Positions 16,351-58,463 of a stretch of DNA of 64,000 nucleotides are shown piece after piece (the first letter of the stretch is position 1; each line of letters opens with the position of its first letter). The stretch covers positions 18,462,631 to 18,526,630 of the forward strand of contig CM119265.1 in NCBI GenBank assembly GCA_051294375.1, read 5' to 3'. Source of the DNA: Paraspadella gotoi (taxonomy: Eukaryota; Animalia; Chaetognatha). Below the pieces are notes generated by a model. The model did no database searches and was not told the origin of the DNA. It saw only the letters and a program-made list of their open reading frames with translations. The position numbers and the translations under genes were made by a program.

Positions 16351-16764
16351 TCACTTTCCTATTCGTTGAACGACCCACTCTTGCTGGCAGAGGGGGCATC
16401 GATTATTCTGCTTCACCCAGAGACTCATGCAGCAATTGTGAAACGAGTGATTGCAGTCGCCCCACACTACGACGCAGTCATCGTGCTGTCGAAAAGAATG
16501 GAAAAAATGCAATGCAAACCACCCCAAACACATAATGATCACAGAAAAAACGCTCCTTACCTTGTTTTCGGCTTGACACCGTAGACAAGCGTCCATGACT
16601 TGGACGCGACAGATGGCGCAGGTGTCGCACTCCACGTCCCAACTCCACATCGCGACTCCGTTCCACTTTTTCAAGGTGAACATTTTGCCGGCGACGGCGG
16701 TGCCCGGCTTTTCTTTGTCCTGAATCATCGCGGCGTCGTCCATCGTTTCGTCGGGGTCAGCCAT
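16351..16764 (-). CDS. RNF7: RING-box protein 2 (RBX2/SAG)
   Basis: MFTLKKWNGVAMWSWDVECDTCAICRVQVMDACLRCQ...DCVVVWGDCNHSFHNCCMSLWVKQNNRCPLCQQEWVVQRIGK. One in-frame, stop-free 75-nt GT-AG intron at 16486-16560. Confidence 0.97.
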   Translation of the reverse strand: MADPDETMDDAAMIQDKEKPGTAVAGKMFTLKKWNGVAMWSWDVECDTCAICRVQVMDACLRCQAENKVRSVFSVIIMCLGWFALHFFHSFRQHDDCVVVWGDCNHSFHNCCMSLWVKQNNRCPLCQQEWVVQRIGK

Positions 16765-16823
16765 GATTTTTTTTGGTGATATCGACCGATTTGCCGTTAT
16801 TTTTTGTGCCGAGAAAACGGAGT

Positions 16824-17343
16824 TTAATCTTTCTTTCCGGATGTTTGATCGGTTCCGCCGAAAACTGACTTCTTTGCTTTCGACAGAGTGTCGGAAATCG
16901 AGCCTATTGTAAAAAGTTGATTATGTACAAAAAATTGTTTTTCACGATTCAACATTTAAAAAACCGAAACGAATGATCGCCGTAGACAAAGCCAAACTCA
17001 CCAGGAATAACGATTATGGCGGCAGTGGTAGACCGCACTGCTCTGTTCCAGGCGGTCTTGAACGCGCAATGGTAGGTTCCAAGATCAGGAAGCTTATTGG
17101 CCAAAGCACTCAAATCGGGGAAAACCTTGGCTACCTGAATTGATCCCCCCAAAAAATTACAAAAAACAATCGAGAGACGGTCATCCCTTCTTAGAGCGCT
17201 TTCTGCACCTGATTGGCGACGGGAAGGGAGTCAGACGCTTTGCCCCAAACGCCGAGTCTTACGGTCGCGTAAGTCAAGAGACACGGGATTCCCACTCGTC
17301 CACCAATTATCAAAGTTTTTTTCAATGCAGGAGGAATGGCCAT
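16824..17343 (-). CDS. MICOS13: MICOS complex subunit MIC13 (QIL1), 115 aa, 3 exons
   Basis: Exons 17343-17209, 17134-17002 and 16903-16824 give MAIPPALKKTLIIGGRVGIPCLLTYATVRLGVWGKASDSLPVANQ|VAKVFPD...FKTAWNRAVRSTTAAIIVIPG|SISDTLSKAKKSVFGG...KKD*. Has an N-terminal hydrophobic segment with Y-x-T-x3-GVWG, the conserved WN motif, and the size of MIC13. Confidence 0.8.
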
Positions 17344-17537
17344 CCCCTGACAACAAGAAGGCGTAACACGAAAAACGTTAACAACGAAAACAAGATAAAC
17401 ACGGCGTGGAGTAAAATTTCAATTGGTCTGGTTTTTTGAGGGAATTGAAGTTGTCTGTTTTATTAGTTTTCGTAATTGTCAACTTAAATAACCGATTGAA
17501 ATTATAACCAATATGGTTTCTATGATGAAAACACTAA

Positions 17538-18611
17538 TCAACTAATAAAATCATTCCCTTCAAAATTCACGTCCTCATTCTGCTCTGAGTCTTTGCATCG
17601 TCTCTGCAAAATCTCGGCCACGTCAGATAGGTGCACTTCTTCCCCAGTTTTCGTTTCCCGATGCATGATCCGGACAATTCCGTTCCCTTTTTGGCCAACG
17701 CCTTTGAGGTCGAGAAAGAACGGAACTCCCAGACCGTTGTTTTCTATGATGTTGGTCAGTCCTAGCGTCTCCATAGACTCACAGGGGACTCTACGTTTTT
17801 TCAATTCGTCATTGATATAGCTGGCAACTCGGCGATCTCCCTCGTGCAATTCGGCTAAAGGGATGACGACTTTGATAGGTACTAGCCGCAGGTCAAGGGC
17901 GAACTGCTGGCGGCGGCGCCAATGGTCATGTGCGTTGAGAAGGTAGGCTACTGCGGCGTTGGAGGGGGCGCTGCGCAATTCCAGTATTGTGGCACCAAAT
18001 GGATCTCGACCATAAGAAATAAGGCGTTCAACGATGACGTTGTCATCGGAAGAGGTTTCGTCGACGCGTCGCATCCGCTCGTCTCGTGAGTCACCCGGCA
18101 ATTCGCCCGGAGAAAAGCGCATCTCGCAGGAATCGTGAATACAAAAACTTCCGGGCGGTTCGACAAAGCGACGGTAAAACATTCGGCGATCTCGAAATAG
18201 GGCGCGAGTCGATCGGTCGCCCGACGGAAGATACAAAATGGTCGATCGACAGGAGATCGTCGACGGATGCCCGGGGGTTCTGTAGAGTGTCGAAGAGTCC
18301 ACGTCGTCGAGAACCTGGTCAACGGAGAAGGAAATTTTTCCCTTCGATGATTCTCGGGCAACCCTGATAGCCTGAACGGCGGATTTGACATGATCCTCGC
18401 AGAATGAACAGTTTCCGTCCAAGGAAGCGAGATAGTTGGAGACAGCGTTAGAGTCGAACCACGACTCAGCCTTTACGGACACCAGCGGAGTCCACGTCTT
18501 TAATTTTGCGAGACGGAGCTGCTCCTCGATGTTGCGACGCAAGGCGGTTAAATAAACCTCGTCGCCTAAGTGGTTGTACTTGCGCAGATGGCGCAACACG
18601 GAAGACAACAT
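17538..18611 (-). CDS. POLG2: Mitochondrial DNA polymerase gamma accessory subunit, divergent and intronless
   Basis: 357-aa ORF. The C-terminal anticodon-binding-like domain (LDLRLVPIKVVI...GVPFFL...NGIVRIMHRETKTGEEVHLSDVAEIL) matches the POLG2 pattern LxLHPxLAPIKV...NGLIxLRSRDTTxKExxHIS. Confidence 0.72.
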   Translation of the reverse strand: MLSSVLRHLRKYNHLGDEVYLTALRRNIEEQLRLAKLKTWTPLVSVKAESWFDSNAVSNYLASLDGNCSFCEDHVKSAVQAIRVARESSKGKISFSVDQVLDDVDSSTLYRTPGHPSTISCRSTILYLPSGDRSTRALFRDRRMFYRRFVEPPGSFCIHDSCEMRFSPGELPGDSRDERMRRVDETSSDDNVIVERLISYGRDPFGATILELRSAPSNAAVAYLLNAHDHWRRRQQFALDLRLVPIKVVIPLAELHEGDRRVASYINDELKKRRVPCESMETLGLTNIIENNGLGVPFFLDLKGVGQKGNGIVRIMHRETKTGEEVHLSDVAEILQRRCKDSEQNEDVNFEGNDFIS

Positions 18612-18917
18612 TTCGGTACGAGTAGGGACGAAGAAATATGTTGGAAGACAAGGTCTTGTTTCCTTGCCAAGTTAAGGAATAACCGGCTGGTGGGGGCAAA
18701 AGTATCGACGAAAAATTTAATTTAGCCATGTTTCTATCGGGACGATAGATCACGATGGGTTGGACCAGTTCTTCATTCTTGTATTTGACACTTTTTAACT
18801 ATAAAATATTTCGTAAATAAAAAATAAAATTTCATAATGATAATTAATGCAAAAGCGCGAATAAAAATTATATCTCATTCACTCATGACTTATAAAAAAA
18901 ATTTCATCATTTCCCTC

Positions 18918-20489
18918 TCAACGACTGTGCGTACGAGAGTCGCTAACGGACGAAGCTTTCTTGCTGACAGAAGGAGACGGCGATCCAGAGGCGTTAACCG
19001 ATCCACCCGGAGTCACCTTTGGCGAAGCCATCGAAGAGCCGTGATTTGACGAGGCTGGCGATCCCGTCGAACCCGGCGGCATGCGCTCGTTAGCGCGATC
19101 CAATCGCTTGGCTGCGTCGAAACGATCTGCCCTCGATTCCTTCAAAGACGCCTTCAAACCTTCCCGACCCTCGACCAGTGTCCCCGATGGGAGGGTATTG
19201 GTACCCGAGAGTCCTTTCAGCGTGTATACCGTTTCGGACTCCTCGCGGAGCGTGCTAAAAACTTTGGCCATTCTACCGACGGCGCGGATCTTGGCGCGGA
19301 TTTTGTTTTTTCTGTCCTCGTCGGGATAGTCGTCGTCGTCGTCGTCGCCCTCGAGTTCGTCGTCGCTGCAGACCTGGAGGACGGCAACCAAGATTTCTGT
19401 AACCTTCTCTGCGACGAAAGGCAGCGACCAAGTGAAGACGTCCATAAAATTGGGCAGCCAGTAAGGGTGCGGGCTGAAGTTAAACTGCCGAATGTTCATT
19501 ACCAGGTCCTTGTTGGGGTTTGCCTCGTACTTGAGAATGGCCGCCTTGTTGTTGTAAACATCGAGGTAGTTGGGCGCCGAGAAGATAGTGATAAGCGAGG
19601 GAAACCCAGTTGAAGAACATTTACGGTACATTCTGTAACCAGCGTCTTGCGCCTCGTGGGCTCGAATGACGGCAAGCAGGTTGTTGTGCGCCAAAAACTG
19701 GCAGCAAGCGCTAAAAGAGAAATAGTAAGAGCAACCGCGAACGGTGTTGTGGGTGAAGTGCTCGTTGGTCTTTTCGCTACCATAATCTTCGTGAGGATCG
19801 GCCCAAAGAATGTCGCACATCGGGCCAAAAGGCGGCGGCTCCCTAAATCGGTCGATCCGTCGGATGTCGTCGACGGTGTGGATCTCGGGCGACAGGCCAC
19901 CGTGGATGCAGAGGTACTGGTGGTTCATTACGGCCGCAAGAGGGAGGCAGTCGAACGAGGACATGCAGGCCTCGTACACCTTTTCCGAATATTTGACGAG
20001 GCATTCGGTCTTAAAGGTAAAGTACTCGCTGAGATGACGGCACTCATGATTGCCGCGTATCATGTAGAAGGTATCGGTGAAAAGAATTTTGAGGGACCAA
20101 AGATAAAGGACAATTTCTATGCTGAAGTTTCCCCGATCGACGTAGTCGCCAAGAAAAAGATAGCGCGTCCTTTCGGGCGCGCCCCCGACGTCAAAGAGCT
20201 TCATGAGATCGTAAAACTGGCCATGAACGTCGCCACAAACGGTTACCGGCGCCGTCACGTCTAGCACTGTCCTCTCACGGCCGAGCAAGGCGGTGCCTTC
20301 GTTGATAATACGTAAAGCGACGAGTTCCTCCACTCGACCCTCGCGGATGAAGTGCGCCTTGAGGACGTCGGGTCGTGGCTTTCCACGCGCGTCGTAGACC
20401 TGCTGCATTGTGAGGCGATTCGCAGGAGGAGGCGGAAACGTGTCCACGACGCGTTTGTTCACATCGATCGCTTTAGCGGGCCGCGCCAT
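18918..20489 (-). CDS. PPP3C: Calcineurin A (PP2B catalytic subunit), intronless
   Basis: PPP motifs GDVHGQ, GDYVDRG and RGNHE; [12 protein letters not shown]; CNB-binding [12 protein letters not shown]; CaM-binding [20 protein letters not shown]; autoinhibitory [16 protein letters not shown]. Confidence 0.98.
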
Positions 20490-21544
20490 GATAAAGGTGA
20501 TAGAACAAGGGTTATCGTTTGATTTTGTTTGGATTTTATAGGAATTGGACTGGAGCTAAAAAAAGTAAAATGTATGAATCATAAAGTTACAAAATTTCAT
20601 ATTAAGTTAGTACGGAATCCTTAAGTTAAGGAATATAAATTAACTTCATTTGCATCAACATTTGTCATGAGTTATAAAACAAGTCGCAGGTTTTCAAAGC
20701 TGTGATCATTTTTGTTTTAAAAACGATGTTATTGTCATTCCTGTAAAAGAAACAAAAAAAATCAATAAATATCATTCAAACATTGCCCAAAAGTTGAGTG
20801 AAAGTTAGACATGCGACCAAAAGGAACTCTTTAGTTATTGTTTAAATATATAATAATAAAGCATACATCAATTAAAAATCTATAATTCAGAGTTACAATT
20901 TAAACGGCTATTATTATCTAGCACAGGTTGACTAGTGTCGATTATGAAAATATTAAGATATGAAAATTTTTAATTTTTAGAAATTATCTGGAAGATTTTA
21001 ACCAAGACCACAACAGGATAGAAGATGAGACGCAAAAATTTGTTCAATTTTAAATTTACCATCAAGCTGAGATACAAGCAGTATGAGTTGACTATCTAGG
21101 AAACAGAACTTTAAAAAAATACAAATTTGAAATCACCCTTTATGTTATCACAATAAAATTTATATATTCATGGCAAAGCAAACATTAGTTTGTCACGATC
21201 CATCACAATTATGATAATCATGGATTTAGACTCATCAATTGTATAATGTATGTATAAAATATAATATAATGGGAGAAAATTTAAATAAAGAGCATTTTTG
21301 CCTTTCATCTTTTTTGTTGTGTAGTCTTTAAAGTAAGTGTGCTATCAGTTACTTTAACATTACTACTGTTCAAAATTAATTTTCCCTTAATCGGCGATGT
21401 CTCCAGGAATGTTTGAAGATGATGCCCTTATATCATTTAATTATTCGCATAACAAAAACAACGATCTGGACTAAAAAACCGACTAAAAATAAAGCTAAGG
21501 GGAGAAATAATAATAGTGGGAGGGTGGTAAAAAAAAATTATCCT

Positions 21545-24500
21545 TCAGTGTTTGAACGGAATTTGGAGCGTAAAAGAATAAGACAACGGAACAGAGAGGA
21601 GGCCGCCGGATTCCAGGCGTTCATCTTCGACTTGAGCGTCATTCTCGTCGGAGAGAGAATCGACGAACGCGTTGAAAGTCAACGGTGCAACGTTTTCCAC
21701 GTCAATAATCTCCGTTTCGCCGACATCGGCGAGAGACTGCCGCAAATCCCAGACGAAAGAGGCTTCGATATCACAGTCGATCGTCGGCTGCGAATCCGAT
21801 CGATTCAGAGCAACGATGTCTAATACTACGTCTTGCCGAAAATTGGAACCTTGGTCAGAGTCAATGGCACGAGAGAGAAGAGGGTCTTTTAGGCGATATC
21901 TCGCGCGAGAACGAGCATCGGCGAGGGCGACGACGATTTGAACCAAACGGGATTCTTCATCGCCGGGCACGACGTGAACAGCGTGTCGAGCGCGTAACGC
22001 CGGGCGAAAAGAGACGACTTCCTCGACGGGATCAGAGAGCCAGGAGCACCGAAAAACGATGCGTCCAGTTCGAGGATCGACATCTCCTTCCGCCAAATCG
22101 TGATGACCGACGACGACGAGGTCTTTAATGTAGGGGGCGTAAGGATCGGATATGTCGCGGATGAGAAAAGAGTCTTTCTCTCCGGGCGCGAAAACGCGGC
22201 AACCGCGAGAGTCGAAGACATCAACAGAGAGTGGAGCATCGCTGTCGAATCGGGAGTCCTTGGGGACCGCAACGCGTGTGGCGATAGCATCGGACAAATG
22301 GAGAAACGCCGCTTTGAAAGATGCCGCGCGACCGGCCGGAAATGTTCGTTCGACGAGGCGGTCGGACGGGAGTTGAAGACGGACTCGGGCAAGTTGTCGC
22401 CGCGCTTCGGCGAGTAGGCGAAACCGGAGGCCGGCGAAGTCGGGGACAGTTTCGACAAACTTGACGCCATCAAGCGAGAGGTTGAGCCGGTGAAATCCGT
22501 AGAATCTGGAAAATAAGACGGTTTTAAGGAAAAATTAAATACTGTAGATTTGTGCGAACATTTAATTTTAAACAGTAGCGATCAAAACTGTACAGACTGT
22601 ATAGTATATGTGAGACGCTCACCCAGGCTCTAAACCATTAGGAATCGTAGTTTTCAAATAGAGCAAGTTTGAGCCGGGATAGATTCTCGGATTCTTCAGC
22701 TCCATCGTCTCTGCTGCAACTTCGTCGGCATCCTCGGGCGTCTGGCGATTTTTAATCAGTTGATAAACCGAGTCGAGTTTCTTCAATGTGGCCGCCGGAT
22801 TCCGACAGGCCACGTAAGCGGCGACAATGGATCGGCGCGGTCCCGGTTGTCCCAGGTCGAGGCGCGACACCTGCGAAATCAGGGCATTTTTTTTTAGAAT
22901 TTAAATAGCCTGATGCATTTTAATTTCTTTTTTGTATGATTTCATTTACGTTGTGTTTGATATAAGAAGAGAAAATATTTTTATATCAACAACGATAACA
23001 ATCCATCGTCGTTGAAAAAAAAAATTATCTTCTAATTTCTTTTTTTAAAGAGGCCGATTTCAAAATAGTTTATACTCGTAGGCTACGACAAAATGACTAA
23101 CCATCTGCAAACGCTCTCCCTCCCACGCCGCCAGTGGATTGGCCAACGCCGGTGGGAAGTGAAAGACATGCGGCGATGCGTCGTCGGGCCAAGCGTCGCC
23201 GGGGCAAGGGGCGCCGTTAACGCCTTGATGAGGGAGGCGACGTATGGTCAGGGTCAGCGAAGTAGGAAGAAGTTGCTGAGGTAAATTACTGAGTAGTCGG
23301 AGTGCCACCTGAAAGGATAGAAGCATATATGGATAAGGGAATTAAGGAGAGGAGCTCAGAGCCGAGAGACTAACGGTGACGTCCTCTCCAGGCGCTAATT
23401 CCATAGGTGGCGCGTCGTCTTGAGCGTCCCCCGGGGACGTGGCGCCATCGCTTAGCCCCAAGGCTTTCGCTTCAAAAACAGGAAGGAAAGCCACGCGGGT
23501 GGGCGTCTCCATTTCGTCGTCGTCGGTCCTCTCCGGAGTATCGGACGACATGGAGGCGGGGCGCGAGTTCGGTAGGCGCATTTCGCTGGTGGAGTTGGTA
23601 CGAGAATTGGGGCGGGAATTTGATTCGTCGAGGCCGTTGGCAAACGAGGATTCTAAGGAGCGAGCGCAATCTGACAGCTCCTGGAAAAAAAAAAATAATA
23701 ATGAACTTTATAAAAAATTCGAAAAGTTTAAATAAGTCACCTTCTGATAAAACTTTCTCATTTCCAAATCGCAAAAACCGGAAGCTGCCAGTTCCGTAAG
23801 AATCTTGAAATACTTATGCGTCTCCCCGGTGGCTTGGTAGCACAAAGCCATCTCCTTACAAATGGCGATGGTAAGTCGATCCCACCGTTGGGTCTGGTAC
23901 ATACGTAGTAAATCCTGAATTGAAGGATCCCATGAACCGTTAACTTATCACATTTGAGCCATCTTACAATAAACACCGCTTATCAGAATTAAAAATTGGA
24001 CCAGGGGAAATTTCATTTAAAACATTTCTGCGTCGAATGCAAGTTAATATAATAGTGACTTTTTCCTTACCAAGAAAAACGATTCGGCCTTGTGGTATTC
24101 TCCCAGCTTCATATAAAATCTCGCGAGGTCGCGGCCGATGACCCTCGCGGATCGAATCCTGCCGATATGCTTATAGGTGCCCATGGCCAGCTCCGCCACT
24201 TCCATGTACAGTTTTTGGAATGCGGCCTTTGAGGAGAGGGCTTCCCTGAGTTTGGCCATCGGGCGGCCAGGAACGTCGTAAAGGTGGTCCCCCATTCCGG
24301 CCACCAGTTCGACCACGCGTTGCAGTTGGTCCGAGGTCGTTTCCGTGTCAGGCATCAGGCCGCACAGACGATCTCCTATGAAAAAAATATGCAGTCAATA
24401 ATACTATCAAAAAACAAAACTCGACAAAAAAAATTAAAATTACCCAAGATAAGCAGCTTTTCTCTGGCGTACGCCCACAAATTAGCTGTGTGGAGAGAGT

Positions 24501-27042
24501 AGTTTTCTATTTCCGAACTGTCACTGTACTTCTCACAAGTGTGGAGAACCTCAAGGCAGGAGAGGAAGACCCAACACGCTTCCGCGCCATCAGTTAAGGA
24601 GACTTCGAGGATTTTTAATTCGTTGATTGTCTGGAGATATAGAATACATGTCATAATAGAAATTAAAAACCCTTGACTAAATTCCTCTTCCCTTACCTGA
24701 TGCATAAAAGGCAATGAGCGCTTTGCGACTTCCCAGGGTCTGCACAAGAGCAACAGCAACGAACATTGACGAGAGAAAACGTAATTTCTAAAGTCCAACA
24801 GAGTTGCTGACCGGTATTTTAGCATTTCGCGTTTTTTCTAAAATAAAAAAAAATATAAGTATTCAAAATTATTGAGGGGAGGTACGTACACTAGGGTGGA
24901 GTGATGAAAATATTGAGTGATTGAACATTATTTTTTTGCTGCCTATGGATATATAATTAATGAATTTTAAATCCTTTTAAAAATTTTTTTAGCATAACAG
25001 TATAGCAAATTTAATTATTTATGTAGTAATATCCTTATAAAATCGTCAAATTTCAAAATAATTTTTTTTTTATTTTTAAGAACTGATTTGGATTCGCTGT
25101 AAAAAACTAAAAAACTTTTATAAAATATGTTATATGATATTTTAATGTTTAGATCACAAAAAAATGACTAAAACATTTTAACATATATAAGTTTCTACTA
25201 CAGAGAATAAAAAAGTCAGGAATTTTCACTTTTTTTCTTATTTTGAACATTGAAGATGACAGAAATTTTGATAACATGTTTTATATTTTTGATTCAACTT
25301 TTTATGAAGAATCTGAATCTTTATTAAAAGTTTTATAAAAATTATTTTTAAAATTTACTATTTTATAAGGATATTACTACAAATATATTATATTTTACTA
25401 TTCTGTTCCCGAGATAATATGAACAAAATATTTTTTGTATTAGTTAATCATACTATCTCACATCTAAATATCATTGTTCGATCATTCAAATAAATTTTTT
25501 GTTCTTGAGTGCTCCACTCTAACGTACACGTCGACTGAGGACGATATCTAAATTAAAAACAAAACTACCTGGTTGATAGGAAATGACAGGCACAGTCCAT
25601 CCCAGCTGGTTACGGTTTTAGCGGCGAAATCGGCAAGCCATTCTAGGCCAGAAGTTGCGCCAGCTCCGGAGTTAAGAACGAACTGGGAGAAGAGGGCGTC
25701 CAGTTCATCGTATTGGATCAGTGCGTCCTCGTAAAGTCCCATCATTTCATAGGCGAAGGCCAGCTCCTCCTAATAAGAAAAAGGTAATCAGAGTACGAAA
25801 ATTGATTTTTTTTTGGAAGGCTTACTTGCAGAAGAAAATAATCCAAGAAATTCCACGAAGATTCTGTTCGCCGTTCTCTCTGCCAATGCACAACAATGCA
25901 GTAGATGGAAGCAGAATAACATTAAAAACTTCTCTATATGGTTAAAGCATGAAAACACTTACCTGTGTCCGCATATGATCTTCAAACAGAGAAACATGAT
26001 GGTTGAAGGCGTTCATGAGCTGACACCGCAGTCTGTCCATAAAGGTCTGCCAACTTTGGTCGGATCCGCGGTCATGTTTCGAAGGGTCCAATAAGTTAGT
26101 CACCCGTTCTTGGAAAAAAAAAATACATATTTGACATAATCCGTTAAAAAAACGTTTAAAAATTTTAAATTACCCGGATGTTTGGGACAAAAATCCGATC
26201 TGATCTTGTCATCGATGGAGGTTCTGAGAGGATTGAGCTTCCTGTTCGGAGTCTTGGCCTCTTGCGTTCCCGACCCTGATACCACAACCACCATCCATTC
26301 CTTGGTAGGGGGGAGGGAAATTAAAATTGTCCGAACCGTTATTTGGTCAATTAAAAATTAGCAATCTATTCGTCAACTATGATAAAAATTCACTTGTTCA
26401 GCGTTGTATTTCCTGAGAAGCGATATCCAGTTGGCTATGTCATCACGAACCGAAGACTTGTACCTTTTTTTATTAAAAAAAAGTAACAGGATAAAATTTC
26501 AGGTTTTTTTAAAATTTGCCCCTCAATTAAAATACCGGTCTAATTCACAGATTTCAACCCAAAAGATGTGGAAAAAGGGTTGTTCTGTAAGAGCCAATTC
26601 AATAGCAGATTCCAGAAAGCTTTCCTCCAGAAATACGAACTGCGCTTCAACGTGTACGGTTTTAGGAGGCCGGCCGTAAGACCTTGTAAAACAAATCTTT
26701 AATTGATTGTCGATAACATATGTAGAACTGTATAATTTTCAGAAAATATATTTATGGTATAATCCTTTCTGATGACAAAGAAATTTTTATTGTAATGTTT
26801 ACAAACAATGATTTTTGTAAAAATTACAAAAAATTGTTTTTGTTAGAAAATATGAAAGTTGCAAAATTACTTGTTTCACTAATCACTATCAGTATCACTT
26901 ATATATTAGATTAATTGTTCTTTTCCTCCAACTACCTTTTCCAATCGATGGGTTCTTTCGGTAAATTTTGCACAACCCGGCCGGCCAGGTTATAGAAGAG
27001 AGACTGATCCCCATAGCAGGTGACCACGGGTTTTTTCTCCAT
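21545..27042 (-). CDS. TRAPPC10: Trafficking protein particle complex subunit 10 (TRS130)
   Basis: ATG 27042 MEKKPVVTCYGDQSLF...; WNFLDYFLLQ|EELAFAYEMMGLYEDALIQYDELDALFSQF; ATLLDFRNYVFSRQC; ELAMGTYKHIGRIRSAR. Multi-exon, with a long divergent last exon (~22505-21545). Confidence 0.93.
24892..25521. mobile_element. hAT-family MITE in TRAPPC10 intron (24838-25568)
   Basis: Perfect 8-bp TSD ACGTACAC at 24884-24891 and 25522-25529. TIRs TAGGGTGGAG / TAGAGTGGAG. Internal inverted repeat tagtaatatccttataaaat / attttataaggatattacta. Confidence 0.88.
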
Positions 27043-27294
27043 GACAATCGTGCTCGAAAACGAGCCGAGCGAGTTTGTTGCGACCTTTCGGCGCTCATGC
27101 GCATTTGGTGGCGTCTTTACGGCCCGCGCTTATGTTGGACTTAAAACGTCGACGAACCCCAAGTCAGACTCCATTTGTAAATCTCAAGCTACGAAGATTC
27201 AAAACAAATAAAATTTATGGTTGTAACAGGTCAATTGCGATGAATTTATCACATTCATAACGATCTAGATCTAAAAATAAAAGATTTTGGGGTA

Positions 27295-30200: not shown

Positions 30201-30453
30201 CTTGGTCGCGAGAGGCGAGGTTCTCGTTTTCTTTCGTGACGACTGTCTCCTCACATTTCTCCGGGATGTCATTTTCCATTTCCCGACCTTGAAGAGTATC
30301 ATCGACGGAAGATTTGAACACAGAGACATTTGCAACATTGCTTGATTTCTGCGTCACCGAAGAAGAGACGATTAAGCGAGTCGAATCTTCGCGCGGCGAA
30401 TCGCTTTCAGCAGGAGATGATTGTGGAATATTTGCTTTCATTGGCTCAGTCAT
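27295..30453 (-). CDS. RNF8: E3 ubiquitin ligase RNF8-like (FHA, coiled coil, RING, CCHC knuckle)
   Basis: FHA: YWIGRADDNQ|VCIPDVVLSRKQAEI...WTVVDNKSLNGTRING...DILQLG. Long coiled coil at 29050-28030. RING: ELQCAVCTELFIEATALNCSHAFCSYCIK|EWRKNKNECPICR. The start codon (30453 or 30441) is uncertain. Confidence 0.9.
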
Positions 30454-39602: not shown

Positions 39603-42285
<2,683 letters not shown>

Positions 42286-46100: not shown

Positions 46101-46959
46101 TCCTTTCTTACCTGACCACTATAAACTCTTCCAGTAATCTCGACCAGCCTATTGGCCTCCCACTTTTCGATGAGCTTTAACACTGAGCCACCCAATACTT
46201 TCACGTTGTTGGGGCCGACTTGAAGATAACCATGTCGGACGGGAATTCGGCCTAAAAGCTGAATCTTTGTTCCCGGCGGAGTGTTTAAACTTATCTGTAG
46301 GTAATACCCACCCAAAAATTATGTTAATTAGTTTCGACCCATTCAGCTAAAAATCGGTTAGGGAAAATCAAGGCCAATGCCACGAAACCTACATGATTAA
46401 TTGTTTCCAGTTCCAGGGCATTGACAGAAGATACACCATCCGTTAGTGTCAGCTTGAGCATCCGGGGCGCCGCTTGGGAGTCTTCATTGGCTTTTGGCGC
46501 CGCAACGTTTCGCACTTTCTGCACTTGAGTCACCATCGGTCCGTCAACGCGGTCTATCTTTCCAGCCTGAGGATAAAAAAATCGAAGCAAAATAGGAATT
46601 AAAGAAAATTTGAGGGGGGAGTATTATTAAACGTTAGTAAACACTGTACATTAAGAAAATCCAACATATAGCCTACCTTGGAAGCTTCCTCGGGTAAGCA
46701 GGCAACGCTGACGTTTTTGAGATCGACATTCTTTAACTCCTCCAGCGCGGCCTTCAAGGGGAGCTTCTCAAATTCTTCGATCTCCAGGTCGACCTTTTCC
46801 CGCGACAAGTGCCATCCCTCGGTTCGGAGCTTCTCCCACTTGCCGCTGGCGAAGGGCAAGGGCGTTTGTTTTGTTTTGTTTTTATGTTTTTTTTTTTTTT
46901 TTTACATTTACAAAGTAATAAAACAGATTCAATTACTTGGTATTTTCGCCGGAGGCCAT
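43170..46959 (-). CDS. TDRD3: TDRD3 paralog B (OB-fold, Tudor, long Pro/Gln-rich tail)
   Basis: ATG 46959 MASGENTN|[13 protein letters not shown]; [31 protein letters not shown]; LNTPPGTKI; [13 protein letters not shown]; [13 protein letters not shown]; [11 protein letters not shown]; Tudor [19 protein letters not shown]...[14 protein letters not shown]. Confidence 0.93.
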
Positions 46960-47439
46960 CTTGCACCGCTCAGCTCGAGACGGAAACGAGAGGCGGAGAG
47001 AGAATTAGCGATCGATTCTTTCGGTTCATGGAGGGACAAAAGGATTTCTGTCGCGATGACGTATTTGGAGCCAAGATTTTGCCGCACAAGCGTCTCCGTC
47101 GCACAGAATACAAAAACTCCTTTCGGAATATAAATGCCCTTAACTTTTATTGCATAGTTTTCGTTGGGAGAAAAGGGTCGTGGTGGTTGAGAGAACGAGA
47201 GAAAAGTGTTTCGCAGTTCGCGAAAGGAAGATCACAGTCAACAGCTAATAAACTAAAATATATTTTGTAAAAAAAAGTGCCGCATTCGTGATGAAGAGCG
47301 CTCACTGGATTTGGGACAAAAAATAAAAATTTGGCATAAATATCAAGCACAAGCGTCAATTATCACCAATTAAAATTCGTCAAAAAATCCGACAAAAAAA
47401 TGAGAAAATTTCGCACTTGTAGCTTAAAATTGCTTCGAG

Positions 47440-50400
47440 TCAATATCTTCGTCCCCTCCCTCCCGCTCCACCTCCTCTACGACCTCCACGACTACCGCGA
47501 CCTCCTCTACCACCACCTCTGCCACCCCCGCTTCCTCCACCGCCTCTAAAGCCCCCTCCTCCAGAATTGGCCCCTCTAAAACCGCCTCGCCCGCCTCCTC
47601 TGTTACTCCCACTATTTCCACCTCGTCCGCTTTTCGATTCATCGACAACGGATTCTCCGTCAAGAGTTCTTAGGTCCGCCACGTCGACTCTCTCCACGTT
47701 GCCGTAATCCAAGAAACTGACAACAGCCATGTTCTTCGCCAGTTCGTCGACGACGGCGACGTAATACTCGCCGTCGGCCCAGTACTTGGCTAGCAAGGTA
47801 TCCCCCTCGGAGACGGAGGGTCTAGTCGGCGCGCGGAAAAGGTCGCCTCGCCTTCGATCATCTTCGCGCGGCGCGTGATGGTGAACGGTGCCGTTGGAAG
47901 GAAGCGGGAAGTCCTCAAGATCCGCGTGGAAGTCCGAAATTGGCTGGGGTCCGCGATTTCGAGAATATCGTTGTTGATTGAAAAAATTAAAGCCCTGAGA
48001 ACGAGATCCTCCTCCTCCTCCTCCTCCTCCTCCTCCACCGCCGCCGCCGCCGCCGCCGCCGCCTTTTCCGACGTCTCCTCCTTCGTGAATTTTTGTCTCC
48101 AAAAAATCAAAGAGAGTGGCTGGTCCTGAGGATGGCGGAGGCGCGGCCTGGTCTTCCTCCTCGCCCCTCCTCCCTCTTCCACGTCGACGCCCACCACGGC
48201 CGCGCCCCCCTCCACCGAATTCGTTTGCGTCCGCTTGCGCGTTGGAGACTCCCCTCTGCTCCTTGGCCCAGTTTACGTCGCGATAAACGGCAGAAGAGTT
48301 TTCAGTTATTCCCGGATCTTCGTCGGTCGATGCCACACGACGACGCGGGGGAGCTGACATCGGCTTAGAAGGTAGACGGCCCCCGCCGAAAGTTTTTTTC
48401 GGTTCCGTATCTTTGGACTTGAGCGCCTCCTGAGCATTAAACGAATTAAATCATTTTGGTAAAAGAGTTCAATTCTTGGCAATAATTTTGTAGAGTAACA
48501 AGTCGACAAAACCTGAAGAGCTTCGTCACGTTGCTGTTCAAATGCAGCATTTTTCTCCTGAGTTCCATCCTCTGGGGTATCGCCGTCGACGTGGTCGACG
48601 GTTCCGAAGGCCGGTTTGGAGACGTCTACATCTTTCGACTTCTTACCAAACGCAACCCACGGGGGCGGACCTCCTTCCTAGGAAGACATAGAAATATTAG
48701 GCGTAATAAGCAGAACAATATACATTCCTGTAATTAATCGAACTGAGTCCGAGGGAAAACACCTGGCCAGAGTAGACTCGGCCGGTCATTTCGACCAGTC
48801 TATTGGCTTCCCATTTCTCCACCATTTTTGCGACGCATCCGCCAAGAACTTTGATATCCTTGGGGCCGACTTGAACATAGCCCTGACGGACAGAGATTTT
48901 ACCAACAATTTGCACTTTGGTGCCTGGCGGTGTGTGGACGGTTAACTGAAAAAAAGGCAAACTTTTGGAAATCGGAAAAGGAATCTTTACTAAAAGTACT
49001 TGATAATTATATTTATATCAAAGAAAGAAAAAAATGTCATGAAGTTATGAAGCTAGACCCTAAACTTGTATTTATTGTTGCGCAACGTGCCTGATTGACA
49101 TGATCAATTTCCAGCAAATTGACGCTGTTAACGCCATCGGTGAGAGTGAGTTTTAGCATACGTGGCGCATGTTGCGATTCTTCATTGGATTTAGGAGCAG
49201 TAACGTTTCTGACTTTTTGAATCTAAATGAGGAAATGGGGTAAAAAGAAAAAGGTAATTCAGCGCCATGAAAAAATCTTAAAAGTATAGTGATCTCGCCA
49301 GACGTTACTATCAAAGAAAATTAATGAAAAAATTAATGATGATGATATAATAGTAATTGATGACTGATGTAATAATAATCGAATATTGATACGATGATAA
49401 CCAAAAGATTGATGCGATGATAACCAAAAGATTTATGTGATGATAACCAAAGGATTGATAGTTTTGATACGATGATAACCAAATATTGATGCGATGATAA
49501 CCAATTATTGATGCGATGATAACCAAATTATTGATGCGATGATAACCAAATTATTGATGCGATGATAACCAAATTATTGATGGGATGATAATCATTCATT
49601 GATTCGATGATAATCATTCATTGATTCGATGATAATCATTCATTGATTCGATGATAATCATTCATTGATGCGATGATAATCATTCATTGATGCGATGATA
49701 ATCATTCATTGATGCGATGATAACCATTCATTGATGCTATGATAATCATTCATTGATGCTATGATAATTATTCATTGATGCGATGATAATCATTCATTGA
49801 TGCGATATAATCATTCATTGACGCGATGATAATCATTCATTGACGCGATGAGTCATTCATCGTAAATAAAACAAACAAATGCCTGTATAAGTGAGAGAGA
49901 GAGAGAGAAAGAGAAAAAGAGAGAGCGGCATATAATTTAAGGAGAGAGAGCTAGACAGCCGTTGGACAGCCGCTGGAGAGCTGCTGCAGAGCTGAACTCG
50001 TCTATATAGACAAAAATTGTTTTGTAAATAAAACAAACAAATGAGTGGAGGAATCTGAAACAACAATTTAAAAGACCTCAATGATGAGAAGCCATGTCAA
50101 AACTTTCTATGGTTACACATTTGAGCTATTTCCAATGTTAAAACATCATGACTGATGAGTGGGTCCAACATGACGACGGCGGCGGCACAAAGAAGCAATA
50201 CTAAATGGTTATCTACGCCCAAGACGTAGATAAAAATATTTAAAAATATTAAAGCCTTAATCTACTGCGGTAAAAACACCACTGTCTCGCAATACCTGCG
50301 CTACAATTGGCCCCTCGATTTTATCAGTTTTGCTGCCCGCCTTGCCAATGTCGTCAGGAAACGAAGGTAAGCCGACTCCCTTGAGATCCATGTTTTTCAG

Positions 50401-50517
50401 AACTTCCAGCGCTGACTTAAAGGGCAGGTCGCAAAAGCCGGGAATCTCTTGGACGATCTTTTCCGGGCTAATCCGCCAACCGTCGGCTTTAAGCCGGTTC
50501 AGTACTTCACCCGACAT
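47440..50517 (-). CDS. TDRD3: TDRD3 paralog A (OB-fold, Tudor, RGG tail)
   Basis: MSGEVLNRLKADGW; [30 protein letters not shown]; HTPPGTKV; EGGPPPWVAFGKK; [11 protein letters not shown]; Tudor GDTLLAKYWADGEYYVAVV...AVVSFLDYGNVERV; RGG-rich C-terminus. Confidence 0.93.
49380..49857. repeat. 22-23-bp minisatellite in TDRD3-A intron
   Basis: About 20 head-to-tail units, changing from tgatgcgatgataaccaaattat (23 bp) to tgatgcgatgataatcattcat (22 bp). No unique spacers. Confidence 0.95.
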
Positions 50518-51440: not shown

Positions 51441-54400
51441 TCAAACGATAGAGCAATGGCCTTTGGACTTGCAACCATCGCACCACCTCCATCGGTTCTT
51501 TGGCCACGAGGTTTTGCACGATTTGCCGCGAGTTTTCGAGATCTTTCCTCTCTTGATCTTGGCACGAACGTTTCCTTCGATCCCGTTTTTCTCTCTTTCC
51601 AGTTGCGAATCGATTGAAGCTATATCGTTCGGATTGTCCGAATTCTCCGAATGCTCCGTAGTAAGGGGAATATCTCCTCCGATTAAGCCGTCGTTGTCGT
51701 TGTCATCGATAGGGGCGACGATGTAAGGTGGATCGGCGACGAAGACGACGACTACGGACTTTTTTCTTTTGAGCAGTTGAGCCTTCGTTGACGGAAGATT
51801 ACAATCACGACACTCTGATAAAGCCGAGGTAGTTTCCTCGGATTCATGGCTTGTGGCCGATGGAAGAAGAGACTTTTTTCCTTCTGGCGTCAGCATGTAT
51901 CGAATCTCATCATCATCAGAAGATTCTTCTTCCTTTTCAAGATCCAAGTGGTCGCCGACCGAAACGTTTTCTCTCCCGACACATTTTTTCTTCAACGTGC
52001 ATTCCCGACACCAAAGCCACCGACGAGATAAACCGTATTTTTGACGGCAACTGTGCCCTACTTCATTTTCAGACAAATAGTAAACAACTGACTCTTCGTA
52101 ATTCGGATTAAGGCGATACAATGGATCTTCTTCATCATCCAACACGTCGACTTCAATTGAGTTTGATTGTGTCCCGATTGAAGACTCTTTCTCGCTATAT
52201 TTTTTCAATTTCTTTTTCATCTCATCGACGACGATTAAAGGATCACCGAAAGTCTCGCGAGATTGCAAGGATGCTTCCGTCGTCACATCCGACGAACTTG
52301 CGGGCGTCTGGACCGACGTTTCCCACAAACGCCTCCTGGAGGAACGAAATGAGGCGGAATCGCTCCAAAATCGCCCGTTTAATCCAGAATCTATTTTAGG
52401 AGAGGTCAAAATTGCTCTTGATGAGGACAAGCTTCGAGTTTTAATCCTTTTAAAATTAGTCTTCGTCATTGATTCCGCTGATGTGGCTGCAGCTGGCGTC
52501 GCTGGAGCAAGAGTCGATGAGGCATCAAACGGTAACGCTATGCGAAAGGTGCGTTTCTTCTTTAACGGTTCAAAATAGGAGTTTGAGGATAATGTTCTCT
52601 GACGCCTTCCGCTCTCAAGATTCCAAAATTTTCCGTTCAAGCCAGAAATGGAAGCGATTGATGTCGAGACGGGATTTTGTTTAGCGGATTTTCTTCGGTG
52701 CTCCATTTCGTTGGACAGGAGAGAATTTTTAATCGGTCGATTATGGACGCCACCGTCGCTGAGATGGCGCCGCTTTGGTTTAAAGTGTTTTCGGCGGGGA
52801 ACTGAAGATGAACGACGTCGTTGTCTCTCGGGACGATGAATATCGGGAATCCCGGATACGCTGAAGGAGACGTGAGCGCCTTTTCGAGTAGAGTGAGGCC
52901 TCTCCACCTTGCTGGAGAAAAGAGGTGACTCTAATGCTTGGTTGTTTTCGACGTGGGGAGTCAATGAAGACGATGGAAAATTCGGATCGTTCGGGGTTTT
53001 GACGCGATGGCTCGACCGACGTCTCTTAGATTCGGCGCGCCAAAACCCACCGTTGAGTCCAAGGTCATTTATCAACGATGCGCGCCTTTTCTTCGCTCTC
53101 TCTGCTTTTTTCGCTGCTTCCGCTCTCTTTCGCTCGATAGCGTTCACCCGCTTGCTTGGAAGGCCGGGACGGTTTCCCTCGCCTTGCCAGAACTCGCCGT
53201 TAAGTCCGGTCGAGGAGGCCCTGGCCAGTTTTTTCATGAGGATAGACCGCTTACAAGACTTGAATCGCGTCCGAGATGGAGAAAGCGGTTGAGTCAGACA
53301 ACCTTCGATTCCATCCGCCGAAGTCGAAACGTGAGCAGTTGGAATCTCCTCAAAGACATTTTCGCTCTCTTGATGTAGACTCGAAGATTCTTTAACTATG
53401 AGTTTCGACAGGGAGATACTGTCTTGGCATCCAGGGCACCTAGAACAAGGGATGATTTTTTTTTCAAAATATAAATAATAATAAAAATAATATTGAAATG
53501 TAATTTTCCCTTACCTTCTGCAATACGTGCCGACTATGTTCCTTGATCGCCTAGATCGGATGGCAATTCTCTTTAGACTCAGATAGATTCTAAACTGCTC
53601 TGCACGTTTGACGCTGTTTCGTTTCATTTCAATCAGTCGCCTCTTTCCGAGCGATTTAGAGGATCTGCATCTACTTTTTGGCCGGCATGACTTGAGTTGG
53701 CGAGAATTGTTCGAACCGGAGGGAGGAGGCTTTCGCGAGGGCGAGCCGCCGGAGGTACGTCTAGAAGGCGACGGAGGTCCGCCGATCGGATCCGTGGCGG
53801 CCAGGGCGATCATTTTCGATTCGCACTTAAGTCTGTCTCTTTCCGAGTTTTTGCGTAATTCCCTTCCTTCGACTGGAGCGGGCGCGAGCTTCGCCTCTTC
53901 AGTCTTCTTCGAATTTTCCAGGATCTCACGTTGCCCATGTTCTTCCTCTTCATGGGTTCTAAGTTGACGGCGATAGTAAAACTTCTTCCCGCAAGTCAAA
54001 CATGCGTAAAGATGGCAATCGGTATGAAACAGCGATCGGTGGTAGTTGAGTTCGCTGAAGCGGAGAAATTCCTTGTCACAGCGGTCGCATTGGTATTTTC
54101 CAGAGAGGTTGCGAAAGAGGTGCGATCTACGGGAAAGAGGAGATTCGGCCTCGTCGGCGTCATGTGTCGACGATGTGGGCGAGGATAACTCGAGCGGGAG
54201 AACGGCGGGAACGCGGTCGAGCGTCGCGGGGTGAGGTGGCAGTGGGAGAGGCGATGGCGGGGGAATTGTCGGAGATTTGGCAACGGCCGCGGAAGGATTG
54301 TTCATCGATTTGACGTCGCAGGTGATTGAGACACTCGCCGTTGAATCGACTTCAGCTGACTCCGAGTTGCGCAAATGATGACGATGACCGGAGTTTCTTT

Positions 54401-57400
54401 TCGCCGGCGTTCGACGAACCGGCGGGGGAGACAAGCGAATGGGTGATTTTCGGCGCTTCTTCGAATCCCTGATTACAAACGAAACCACAGTGAGTTTGAC
54501 CATGCGATTAAAAAATCATAAACGTCTAAGATTCGCTAATTTTATTACCGATTTATTTTGGGATTGGAAATATTTTCCTCTTTGAACTTAAAAGATTTGG
54601 ACAAAGCTGTCTTCAATAATTTGGAACTTGCGTGTTTGAAAGGACTGAAAAAGTAAATATTGCATAGTAACTTGTAACATTTTATATCTAATAATCTATA
54701 AGGAATATTCAGATTTATTCTCCTCATTCCTTGCCTACCTTTCGAAAGTGACTGTATACTCTGGATCAGGACAGAACGAAATGAAAATTCTGCGACGTTC
54801 TCTCTCGTGCGATTTGGCGCTACCACGACGACGAGGAATGAAACTGGCTCTTTCTTTGGCTCGTTCGTCTCTTCTCCCTCCTCCGCCGCCACAGACGCGT
54901 AGGATCCCGTCGCGATCGACGACAGGATATTCCACGGAATCGTCAAAGGAAGGGGCGTCCACGCAGGATGCGCGGGCCTCGGTATCGGAGAAAGCGTGGC
55001 TGTCAGAGTGCGCGTTGGACACCGCGTTCAGACCAGCGATTACTTCGACCATATCGAGTGATCCGGAAGATGGGGAAGGGACCTTGAAGAGAAAGAGTGT
55101 CAGTCTGTCAGATAATTTGTTTCGTAGAAAAACTTAAGAAAGATCGACGATTCGCATACCGAATTAGGCGTCGGGGGAATTTCCATGTCACTAGCTTCAT
55201 CCGAGTCGTATCCGGCTGCGCCGTGTCGAGGGACGATGATGAGGTACGGCTGCACAACGTTGTCGGCATTGTTGTTGCGAGAGGCAGGGACAACGACTTC
55301 CTGGGGAGCGCCTCTTGATTCGGCGATAGAGATGGTGACCGGGGTGGTGACGGGAAGGGATCGTGTGGGCGCTGTGGATGGAAGGGCCTGCTTCGTCAGC
55401 GTCGCATCCGGTTCAGGGTCGGGGGTGATGGGCGAGGAGAGGGGCTCATTTTCAGTACCCGAAGCGATTTGTTTAGGACCACCGGTCAACGTTTGAGGTT
55501 CTGAAAAAAAAAATATCACATTTTAATACATTTTCAACTGTGCTTATACAGTCAAATTATTAATCAAATAAAATGTACACGTAAATACATAGTCTCACAT
55601 TAGTCACGCATTCAATAAAAGTACCTTCTTTGGATTCCGTTGAATCTACTCCTTCTCCCTCCGCTTTGAGATCTCTCGGAAAATTTAAAAGGCATCGTTT
55701 ACGTTTGCAGCAGTTCTCACACCACTTTTCCCTTTCTCGAGGACCGTAGTAAGAACGACACTTGCGCCCCTCCACGACAGCCAACAAAACATCCGTAGAA
55801 AGGTGGCGTTTCCTGGCGCTCTTTCGCGGCGCGCCGACTGTTCCGCCAGAGCAATCCGAAGAAGCTCCGGAGATTAGGACATTCGATTCGATTGATGATT
55901 TCGATTCGGCCTCGGAAACGACCGGATTCGGATCAGATGACTCGGACACTTCCTCGTTTTCATTAAGCCCCTTTGAATCAATCAAATTCGTCGCCGAATC
56001 TAATGTCGCGTCCGGTTTAGGAAGCGTCGCGACGGAGGAAGTCGAACTCAAACTATTCATGGAAGAATGACAAACAAGAGCTTTCTCAGAAGTCGAAGTT
56101 GTCGGTGGCGGAAGAGAACAGAGTATTTGAATTTCCTCGTGGACAGCATTTGAGGACCCGCTAGGCGAAAGCAGGGGCTTGGCCTTTCTCTTATTGGCCC
56201 GAGCCACGGCATCGGCGAAGGCATTCGCTCTCGGGCCCCTGGGCGTGGAGGTTATGGAAGAAGAAGCCGTCGAAGGCGACCCTGGCACAGGAGCAGACCC
56301 ATTGAGGCTCGGAGAAGATTGGGGTTCGAGGATGTGATGGTCGGAGGAGGGAATAGGGGATGCTTCGGGAGAAATAGGCGGCGAAGATCGAGGGACGGGG
56401 GCTTGATTAGGTTCGTTAGAACCGGCACATGCCGTTGAAGGCTTTGGCGTGGAAGTTGAAGATGACGATGAGGTTTTGACAGATTGAGTTGTGTTGGAAG
56501 AGAGCGTAGATGTGGGTGGGGAAACAGACATTAGGCCCACAGCAGCTGACTTGAGAACCGCTATGACAGACTCCAAACGAGATCCAGCGGGACCTGCTGT
56601 TCCCTGAGGAGTCTTGGGTGCATGGTTAGGTCGAGAAAGTGCTGGGGTTGGTAATGCGACAGGCGCGGCACTGCTCGATGGACTGACTCCATTCAACTCT
56701 TTCGGCGGAAGTGCCGGAGGGGCCTCCGAAACGATTTCGGCGACGTCGGCCTTGTAAGAATTATCGAAGTCGGCGTAATCCGACGGCTCGAACTTGAGTT
56801 TTTCGAAAGGTTTGACGCTGCAGACAAAATCGAGTTTTAGTCTAGAGGAGGGAGCGCTAGGATGCCGAGCCATATGAACAGAAAGCCCCTTGCTGAAATA
56901 AAATTGGCGCCCACAAAACTGGCATTGGTGTCTGCCGAATTCCTTGAGCGGCGATCTAGGTTTGGCGGGCGTTAAGTTAGTGCGCGCACCTGCCGGCGAT
57001 TGACGACGAACCGGGGACGGGGAATCGCAGCGGGGATTAAGATGCATCTCAACGTGCGTCTTAAATGAGAGATGCAGGAAGAAAGAAGCGCCGCAGTTAC
57101 GGCACACATACTTGCCCTCTTCGTCTTTGTACCCGTGAGCTGGGTCGACGCAGGAGCGCCGAACTTCGTTCATGGATGATGTCAGAGGCGTGGATTTTCG
57201 GACAAGCAGAGTCGGCGTGGACGATGACGGAGCGCCGGTGAGAATGTGGCACGAAACGTCATCGTCGATGCCATTGGCCGTGCATGCGGCGTTCGAGAGA
57301 CTAGATTGTTCGGCGGGAGTGACAGCGACCGCGGATAAACTGACACCCGGCGCCTCCGCCTCGGAGGCTAGATGATCGGGACACGAGTACGCCGTCGACG

Positions 57401-58463
57401 CACGAGTCTTGCCGTCCATGAGGATCTTGTGCACGCTTTTGAGATGGCGCTTGAGAGCTTTGTCGTGGAGGAATCTTTTGGTGCACAGTGAGCAAGCCAC
57501 CTGCTCCGCCGTCATATGGGCCCGTATTCGATGATCGTGTAAAGCCTTAGAGTGAAGGAACTTTACAGGGCACAATTCGCAAGCAAACTCAAAACCTCTG
57601 GCTGGCATCTGAGCCGCAGGAAACGTTGAAGCCGGAACGCCGTTCGTCCCGACTTTAAACGCCGACGCCGCGTGGACATTACGAAGTCCGTTGGCGTCGA
57701 TACGAGTCGTCGAATCGGCAGAGGAAACTCCCTCGTTCATAGTGGCCCATCCCGTGGCCGAATTGAGAACGCCATTGCTGTACACCAAAGGCGCCTTGCG
57801 AATCGCGGGCCGTTGATGCGCCGGAGCACGGGGTAAAGGACCGCGAGGGAGCAGGAGCCGGTCGGTAGAGGACGAAAGAGAAATCGGAGCCGAAGGACGA
57901 TGATCCATGCTGGAGGAGAATTTGGTGCATCTCTTCTTCTTGCAGCATGCCTTGCACCATAAATGCTTCAAACGGGGACCAAAGCGTCGACGACATCGCC
58001 AAAGAATGGGGCCCACCGTCGCGGAGGTCGACAGGTTCCTCGAATCGTTGGAACGAGACGAGGCATTCTCGAATCGAGAACCTGGAATCCGACAATATGT
58101 AATTATTAACTAGTAATTGCTATATAAAAGAAAAAAGTAAAGCAACAAATTAAAAAAGGCTGGAAAGCTTTCTAAAACAGAGAGAATTAGAGTACTAAGC
58201 CTTGAGAAATTTATTTGATCCAAAAACCGAAACGAGAGCGAAATCTCACCAAGATTATTAACCGATATGACGGTCTCCCTCACGTCCGAAATGATAACCC
58301 TGTCGTCCAAATCTGTCCCTGATTGAAGTGTAGAGACGGTGGGAGTGGCAAAATGGGGCGCGTCTCCGCGTTCTCGTTTGACGATGACGTGATTAAGACG
58401 CGTAGGACCGGAAGTCGAGGGGGGGCTGACGATAGGGTGACTAGTGGCGGCCATTTCGCTCAT
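51441..58463 (-). CDS. ~2100-aa zinc-finger protein with 6 C2H2 fingers and 4 C-clamp-like Cys4 motifs
   Basis: Six phase-compatible GT-AG exons: 58463-58250, 58081-55625, 55500-55160, ~55082-54739, ~54469-53516, ~53440-51441. C2H2 fingers include FACELCPVKFLHSKALHDHRIRAH and YQCDRCDKEFLRFSELNYHRSLFH. C-x12-C-x2-C-x5-C motifs are present. Confidence 0.88.

Follow-up and report, generated by a model that had tools for sequence, protein, structure and literature searches.

We analyzed a 64,000-nucleotide (nt) stretch of contig CM119265.1, deposited as Paraspadella gotoi (GCA_051294375.1, positions 18,462,631 to 18,526,630; hereafter the window, in whose own coordinates all positions are given), and found that 13 genes, from a C2H2 zinc-finger gene (ZNF, ATG at 58463) to an RNF7/RBX-type gene (stop at 16351), all lie on the minus strand, as judged from open reading frame (ORF) reading and exon-wise Pfam searches. 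From 58463 downward, their order is C2H2 ZNF, TDRD3A, TDRD3B, thiolase, SMPD3-like, NAGA-like, SLC3A, RNF8-like, TRAPPC10, calcineurin A, POLG2-like, MIC13-like and RNF7/RBX-type. This run probably holds several operons resolved by spliced leader (SL) trans-splicing rather than a single unit, and at least two transcription units are likely. Leader-spliced co-transcription is likely, and clearest, in the distal six genes, RNF8-TRAPPC10-calcineurin-POLG2-MIC13-RNF7 (30453-16351). Most likely, these six are co-transcribed, perhaps together with NAGA-SLC3A, and so are, separately, thiolase and SMPD3. We observed directly the gene order, the gaps, the cis introns, the cover of three spacers by contigs and a 9-letter contig end that could not be placed.

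The RNA evidence consists of contigs of one public run (X1) that were aligned to positions 16100-29900, that is, to the distal 14 kb. X1 contains 88% of the sampled words and is listed as guessed RNA; we treated it as RNA because its contigs lack GT-AG introns. Among its 31 joints, 15 were examined and 14 of them fit GT-AG introns, and one joint with non-canonical ends (29270/29345) was dropped before the splice models were trained. First, we found that record 1 (2273 nt) carries POLG2, MIC13 and RNF7 in spliced form with both spacers retained, and thereby crosses unspliced the 194-nt POLG2-MIC13 spacer (17344-17537), which holds an AATAAA at 17464 and an acceptor-like site 3 nt before the ATG. 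Second, record 3 (5919 nt) runs from position 29060 in RNF8 through TRAPPC10, retains the 252-nt spacer between them (27043-27294, crossed unspliced by the piece 26934-27478) and reaches 20742, which is 803 nt beyond the TRAPPC10 stop. Spliced contigs thus bridge three of the five distal spacers. No further contig contributes depth to the record 1 bins; the depth bins of the contig-free stretches 20556-20741 and 18791-18879 are fully explained by records 1-3 and were not used as evidence. In runs X2-X4, which gave short pieces, no spacer was crossed among 32 of the 534 pieces.

The genes of this distal block are the RNF8-like gene (27295-30453; FHA, coiled coil, RING and a weak zinc knuckle) and TRAPPC10 (21545-27042), both recognized by Pfam and RNA contigs; an intronless calcineurin A catalytic subunit gene (18918-20489), recognized by homology, Pfam and RNA contigs; an intronless POLG2-like gene (17538-18611), identified by ESM Atlas features (0.93) and without a match in Pfam and PDB (phmmer) searches; a MIC13-like gene of 115 amino acids (aa; 16824-17343, exons 17343-17209, 17134-17002 and 16903-16824), both introns of which are shown by RNA and whose identity is weak (QIL1, E=0.16, single exon); and the RNF7/RBX-type RING-H2 gene (16351-16764), recognized by Pfam and with one intron shown by RNA in two runs.

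The candidate leader comes from the TRAPPC10-calcineurin junction. Record 2 (1686 nt) aligns to 18880-20555, and its letters 1678-1686, directly at the AG at 20557-20556, are unplaced; these nine end letters do not map to the window. Among the 34 AGs of the 1055-nt spacer, those at 20741 and 20556 rank first and second, and records 3 and 2 end precisely there. The TRAPPC10 contig ends inside the AG of the best acceptor-like site (20741-20764), 1 nt short of its end, and the calcineurin contig starts at 20555, next to a candidate trans-splice site (20556-20579), with the nine unplaced letters following. Between 20556 and 20741, the best donor scores -4.1, which is under all 14 true donors (lowest -2.0). 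A good donor (score 4.0) lies further up in the TRAPPC10 3' untranslated region (UTR) at 21136, but a splice from there should carry about 30 letters common to record 3, not nine, if the assembly used 31-letter words. Since the aligner takes common letters greedily (record 3 absorbed a G at 29060), the last letter of the piece joined at 20555 is likely not G, whereas 11 of the 14 cis exons end in G. We infer that the nine unplaced letters are a leader. The first-pass annotation had suggested looking for a shared non-genomic leader at a series of AGs; these nine letters at the calcineurin acceptor are a candidate for it, and nothing leader-like was found among 24 of the 202 loose ends.

At the MIC13-RNF7 junction, the 59-nt spacer (16765-16823) has no AG at all and is A-rich (T 0.20), unlike the U-rich spacers ending in AG that the first-pass annotation had described. 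The closest acceptor upstream of RNF7 belongs to MIC13 intron 2 (16904), and the 139 nt between the two contain no ATG. Given that RNF7 lacks an acceptor of its own, its expression would have to involve either a leader joined in trans to the final MIC13 intron acceptor or a MIC13-RNF7 mRNA that stays bicistronic. If it is trans-spliced, RNF7 likely reuses the last intron acceptor of MIC13. That this pair alone forms a lasting bicistronic mRNA is possible, if somewhat doubtful. With its short first ORF, 59-nt spacer and missing acceptor, the junction resembles Drosophila dicistronic mRNAs (cited in PMC2776167). Unlike these mRNAs, MIC13-RNF7 is part of a longer series of genes in which a 5' end shows signs of splicing.

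Taking these junctions together, we propose the following model. The polymerase would read through successive genes, and the precursor would be one molecule within each unit, with unit starts placed by inference. Cleavage and polyadenylation of the upstream mRNA would then take place at a U-rich AG or immediately ahead of it, and the acceptor in front of the next ATG would receive a short leader exon, by which upstream ATGs would be discarded. The RNF7 mRNA would arise by trans-splicing to the MIC13 intron-2 acceptor (16904), or it would stay in a bicistronic MIC13-RNF7 mRNA. Two of the distal genes have upstream ATGs that could limit translation unless spliced away: those of TRAPPC10 (27104-27174, minus strand) include an in-frame 14-codon ORF, and those of POLG2 (18729-18776, minus strand) include an out-of-frame ORF that overlaps the coding sequence. 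Overall, polycistronic expression resolved by a leader, as proposed in the first-pass annotation, is backed for the distal block by three bridged spacers and nine unplaced letters, all from contigs of one run.

We then compared the run with known operon systems. In P. gotoi, about half of the genes are reported to be trans-spliced and 18% to be in operons, the longest of nine genes (PMC12460157), and in the RP S14-PCNA operon of Spadella cephaloptera, poly(A) site and acceptor are 3 nt apart (PMC2481426). Like chaetognath operons, the run consists of co-oriented, mostly housekeeping genes that can be less than 250 nt apart, and in it an upstream RNA ends only a few bases away from an acceptor. 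In Table 3 of PMC2481426, A is the last letter of all 26 chaetognath leaders, and some forms agree in precisely nine terminal letters and differ at the tenth, a point at which a contig would branch; an A-ended leader would fit the inferred non-G end here. Tandem and lineage-wide duplicates are also a likeness to chaetognath genomes, and the CpG observed/expected ratio of 1.09-1.67 in seven exons fits the absence of gene-body methylation reported for P. gotoi (PMC12460157). Unlike published chaetognath operons, which have nine genes at most, the run here could reach six to thirteen, and the MIC13-RNF7 junction without an acceptor of its own is a second difference.

As in operons of Ciona, which have no intercistronic DNA (PMC1488885), and in SL1-type operons of Caenorhabditis elegans (PMC1488885, PMC9258526), the upstream contig (TRAPPC10) ends inside the acceptor AG. 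Unlike in these, the contig of the downstream gene (calcineurin) begins at another acceptor that lies 185 nt beyond the first, and the leaders of C. elegans and Ciona are G-ended, as are all five from C. elegans, Ciona, Hydra and Schistosoma in Table 1 of PMC7986045. POLG2-MIC13, with an AATAAA, then about 115 nt and then an acceptor, resembles SL2-type operons of C. elegans with their intercistronic regions of about 100 nt; unlike there, the acceptors here are ordinary polypyrimidine-YAG sites and the calcineurin clade falls outside nematodes. Literature searches for SL trans-splicing in gastrotrichs and for acceptors used both in cis and in trans returned nothing relevant, which does not prove absence in print.

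The lineage of the calcineurin gene was assessed with quick maximum likelihood trees, which cover a single gene with long branches and contain no tunicate, flatworm, gastrotrich or chaetognath rows. The closest calcineurin proteins are environmental, P0004 (70%), then P0003/5/6 and P0121 (61%). Together with these relatives, the window protein forms one clade with a support of 99 inside Bilateria, made of two paralogue groups and placed apart from the nematode, arthropod, mollusc/annelid, deuterostome and rotifer rows. This clade adjoins rotifers at a support of 86 in one tree, for which the careful search is unfinished, and has no firm place in the other. Homologue searches and a cluster look-up gave no close relative with a name, which, like the duplicates, the CpG ratio and the A-ended leaders, fits a chaetognath; from the sequence alone, this origin is probable. 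Among the 120 best calcineurin matches, no ascidian protein was found. We considered and rejected a nematode SL2 operon, as the calcineurin lies outside a nematode clade supported at 99-100 (on one gene with a long branch) and as the inferred non-G end misfits SL1/SL2. A metagenome scan with P0004 gave 80 loci, none of that lineage, and no other window gene matched any of them; the 9-letter chaetognath leader end occurs in seven of these 80 loci, always distant from the 5' end, and is uninformative. In the window, an SL RNA gene was sought with no Rfam match and no match to the chaetognath leader pattern. The window calcineurin (18918-20489) appears as a fast-evolving calcineurin A paralogue with a short insertion common to P0004, the slower group P0003/5/6 being in the same clade. 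Being intronless, it is possibly a retrocopy that landed within the run. Another intact intronless calcineurin (L009, 2095-3591) lies beside a broken partial copy (4416-4843) on an unrelated lophotrochozoan-like contig; we rejected it as a sponge gene, as it groups with lophotrochozoans in the tree.

Several observations weigh against leader-resolved operons. First, a contig over two genes is not the same as one transcript, and overlapping UTRs would give the same picture. At the predicted trans-splice sites 18687, 17347, 16904 and 27189, records 1 and 3 show no break, an observation that is at most neutral. Unbroken contigs at acceptors are expected when leader-bearing ends are short tips trimmed by the assembler, and this gives no support either. 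The outer contig ends (18880 and 16271) are not obvious poly(A) sites. Also, U-rich sequence followed by CA is an ordinary poly(A) context, and the end at 20742 therefore need not mean trans-splicing. Second, donors of normal strength lie upstream of the POLG2, MIC13 and TRAPPC10 acceptors (0.3, 1.4 and -1.6, respectively). Third, the lineage signal comes from one long-branched gene without a chaetognath reference. Fourth, the 9-letter match is post hoc, since the two dominant Spadella leaders have their last 13 letters in common instead of 9 (PMC2481426). Finally, the acceptor pattern read from sequence alone is weak, and co-orientation alone is not beyond chance, as detailed below.

From ZNF to RNF7, the stop-to-ATG gaps measure 923, 480, 884, 185, 877, 183, 402, 252, 1055, 306, 194 and 59 nt. 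The eight gaps quoted in the first-pass annotation as tiny spacers (185, 183, 194, 252, 306, 402, 480 and 59 nt) match these measurements, but four longer ones had been omitted, namely ZNF-TDRD3A (923), TDRD3B-ACAT2 (884), SMPD3-NAGA (877) and TRAPPC10-calcineurin (1055). On stop-to-ATG distance, four of the 12 junctions (59, 183, 185 and 194) come under the 250 bp used for P. gotoi operons. Contig ends bound the gap at 186 nt for TRAPPC10-calcineurin and at 89 nt or less for calcineurin-POLG2, RNF8-TRAPPC10 (252) is bridged by a contig, and the five remaining proximal junctions span 402-923 nt. By a simple random-orientation calculation, with a genome of 12,000-20,000 genes assumed, 1.5-2.4 runs of at least 13 genes would be expected per genome, or 2.9-4.9 runs of at least 12 genes when the tandem TDRD3 pair is taken as one.

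Next, we scored acceptors with a model trained on 14 RNA-shown introns, a gene passing when a site lies at most 100 nt from its ATG. Six of the 12 downstream genes passed, versus 4.3 in dinucleotide shuffles (P=0.23); as controls, 22 of 92 other non-coding sense windows and, on the antisense strand, 5 of 12 passed. This test is conservative because the model is small and the shuffle preserves U-richness. The acceptor-like sites are thus not clearly beyond chance, and the pattern does not establish an operon by itself. The AGs named in the first-pass annotation as polypyrimidine-AG sites before ATGs do exist, two of them shifted by 1 nt (18687 and 20556). Calcineurin, POLG2, MIC13, SLC3A and thiolase have a passing acceptor within the ATG-free stretch before the start, and that of POLG2 (18687) is strong and lies downstream of two upstream ATGs. 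In the corresponding stretches of TRAPPC10, TDRD3A, TDRD3B, SMPD3 and NAGA we found weak AGs exclusively, and in that of RNF8 no AG. The AG named for TRAPPC10 (27189) is present, but three upstream ATGs lie in the 146 nt that separate it from the ATG, and for RNF8 and TDRD3A one ATG each lies between the named AG and the start. With a donor model from the same 14 introns, no donor of normal strength was found in the SMPD3 and SLC3A spacers.

Could the run then be made of independent, tightly packed monocistronic genes, with their own promoters often overlapping the upstream 3' UTR and with a calcineurin end that is a very short cis-spliced first exon? Chance should give a few co-oriented runs of 12-13 genes in each genome, acceptor-like sites do not clearly exceed background, and overlapping UTRs can bridge contigs. 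Five genes have upstream regions that are richer in GC and CpG: the upstream GC content is 41-52% at TDRD3B, TRAPPC10, NAGA, POLG2 and RNF7, compared to 29% in introns. YY1-like motifs lie over the TDRD3B ATG and the SMPD3 start, and near calcineurin the letters in front of the weak local donors are not G, in keeping with the non-G end as well. Nevertheless, we regard this explanation as unlikely. Near the calcineurin junction, no donor reaches normal strength, the two contigs that end in the TRAPPC10-calcineurin spacer do so at its top-ranked acceptors, the gaps of 59 and 183-194 nt leave little room, and the sole intergenic E-box of the run found in a motif scan is at its head.

The proximal genes, whose exon structures come from sequence reading and exon-wise Pfam matches, bear on how far co-transcription extends. 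The head of the run is the C2H2 ZNF gene (51441-58463), which has an acceptor-like site (58545) 81 nt upstream of its ATG and a Pfam match barely under the cut-off (E 3e-5). It is followed by the TDRD3-like A gene (47440-50517; RMI1_N OB fold and Tudor, acceptor-like site 50582) and the TDRD3-like B gene (43170-46959, Pfam). The 13 co-oriented genes are as the first-pass annotation had described them, and an SH3 exon (5855-5965) is on the minus strand as well, but they are not all unrelated: TDRD3A and TDRD3B are tandem paralogues with 45-68% identity in three matched segments and 32% in a fourth. Then come thiolase (ACAT2-like, 39603-42285, acceptor-like site 42303), the SMPD3-like gene (36648-39417; 185 nt beyond the thiolase stop, AGs 39521 and 39437), identified by homology only, the alpha-galactosidase/NAGA-like gene (33518-35770, Pfam) and the SLC3A heavy chain gene (30856-33334; 183 nt beyond NAGA, acceptors 33380 and 33354). 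Our Pfam scan covered 111 ORFs chosen by eye, 88 of 225 on the minus strand and 23 of 256 on the plus strand. It backs RMI1_N plus Tudor (two genes), thiolase, alpha-galactosidase, SLC3A2_N plus amylase, FHA plus RING, TRAPPC10, calcineurin-like and zf-rbx1, and none of 15 hand-picked plus-strand ORFs within the run gave a match.

A single 42-kb polycistronic unit with all 13 genes, leader-resolved and under a bidirectional promoter near 58.9 kb, was the largest claim of the first-pass annotation, and no direct support for it was found. We predict a bidirectional promoter between DHFR (plus strand) and ZNF (minus strand) at 58840-58930, with what we take to be an E-box (58919-58914) and a YY1-like motif (58854). 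This lone intergenic E-box and the unbroken co-orientation would fit such a unit, as would the passing acceptors before TDRD3A and ACAT2. Moreover, the 1055-nt gap is by RNA mostly 3' UTR (803 nt), so that the other 0.9-kb gaps may shrink as well. Yet the RNA evidence stops short of 30-58 kb, three proximal gaps measure about 0.9 kb, and TDRD3B and NAGA have no passing acceptor within 100 nt and look promoter-like. The 150 nt upstream of TDRD3B have 52% GC and 15 CpG, an AATAAA lies upstream, and no acceptor passes there; an internal promoter before TDRD3B and NAGA is plausible. In the cited passages, the longest operons have nine genes in P. gotoi (PMC12460157), seven in Ciona (PMC7986045) and, with tag support, seven in Caenorhabditis briggsae (PMC9258526). 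A unit with all 13 genes is very unlikely.

Finally, stable bi- or tricistronic mRNAs, the downstream ORFs of which (above all RNF7) would be reached by leaky scanning or re-initiation, would account for records 1 and 3 being spliced and unbroken over three spacers, for record 1 bins without depth from other contigs and for a MIC13-RNF7 spacer without AG, and have a precedent in the directly translated Drosophila dicistronic mRNAs cited in PMC2776167, but they leave the foreign letters at the calcineurin acceptor unexplained and scanning past upstream ORFs that are long and contain many ATGs (POLG2, RNF8) is unlikely, so that we consider them highly improbable.

Around the run, DHFR (plus strand, 59.3-59.9 kb) stands head-to-head with the ZNF gene and ends the run on that side. 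The gene (59300-59910) lies about 0.4 kb from the E-box/YY1-like element, and the promoter between them is likely bidirectional. Upstream of DHFR, 61520-61670 (minus strand) holds the last exon of a WD40-type gene (weak Pfam matches). Beyond RNF7, a 2.5-kb gap containing a run of N is followed by an orphan ORF and the SH3 gene; within it, 15150-15330 is a GC-richer, promoter-like stretch. The orphan ORF (13885-13406, minus strand) is an acidic single-exon frame of 159 aa without Pfam match and could belong to the SH3 gene or constitute an orphan gene. The latter SH3 gene (5270-12750, minus strand) has several exons, encodes acidic stretches besides the SH3 domain, and may resemble nephrocystin-1 in its layout. 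As for repeats, two intronic elements (29650-29870 and 24880-25520) have a summed contig depth of up to about 4800 with many variants in X1 and are either expressed or high-copy; the second has 87-nt inverted arms, like a miniature inverted-repeat transposable element. Intron 1 of TDRD3A contains a 22-nt minisatellite with at least 10 copies (49322-49839).

Chaetognath operons are already published genome-wide, and what the leader-resolved operons proposed here would add is restricted to their length and to the acceptor shared by MIC13 and RNF7. A single SL-resolved operon of 10-13 genes, up to 42 kb long and with RNF7 expressed via the last intron acceptor of MIC13, is rather unlikely. If true, it would be longer than the operons reported for chaetognaths, Ciona and C. 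briggsae in the portions of the literature cited above, and one splice site would choose between two mRNAs. If confirmed, the run would bring together three junction types, that is, an almost zero gap, an AATAAA with a gap of about 100 nt, and a gap without acceptor. It would then allow one to ask how trans-splicing, cis-splicing and the formation of 3' ends compete on one precursor, as PMC1488885 asks for Ciona operons.

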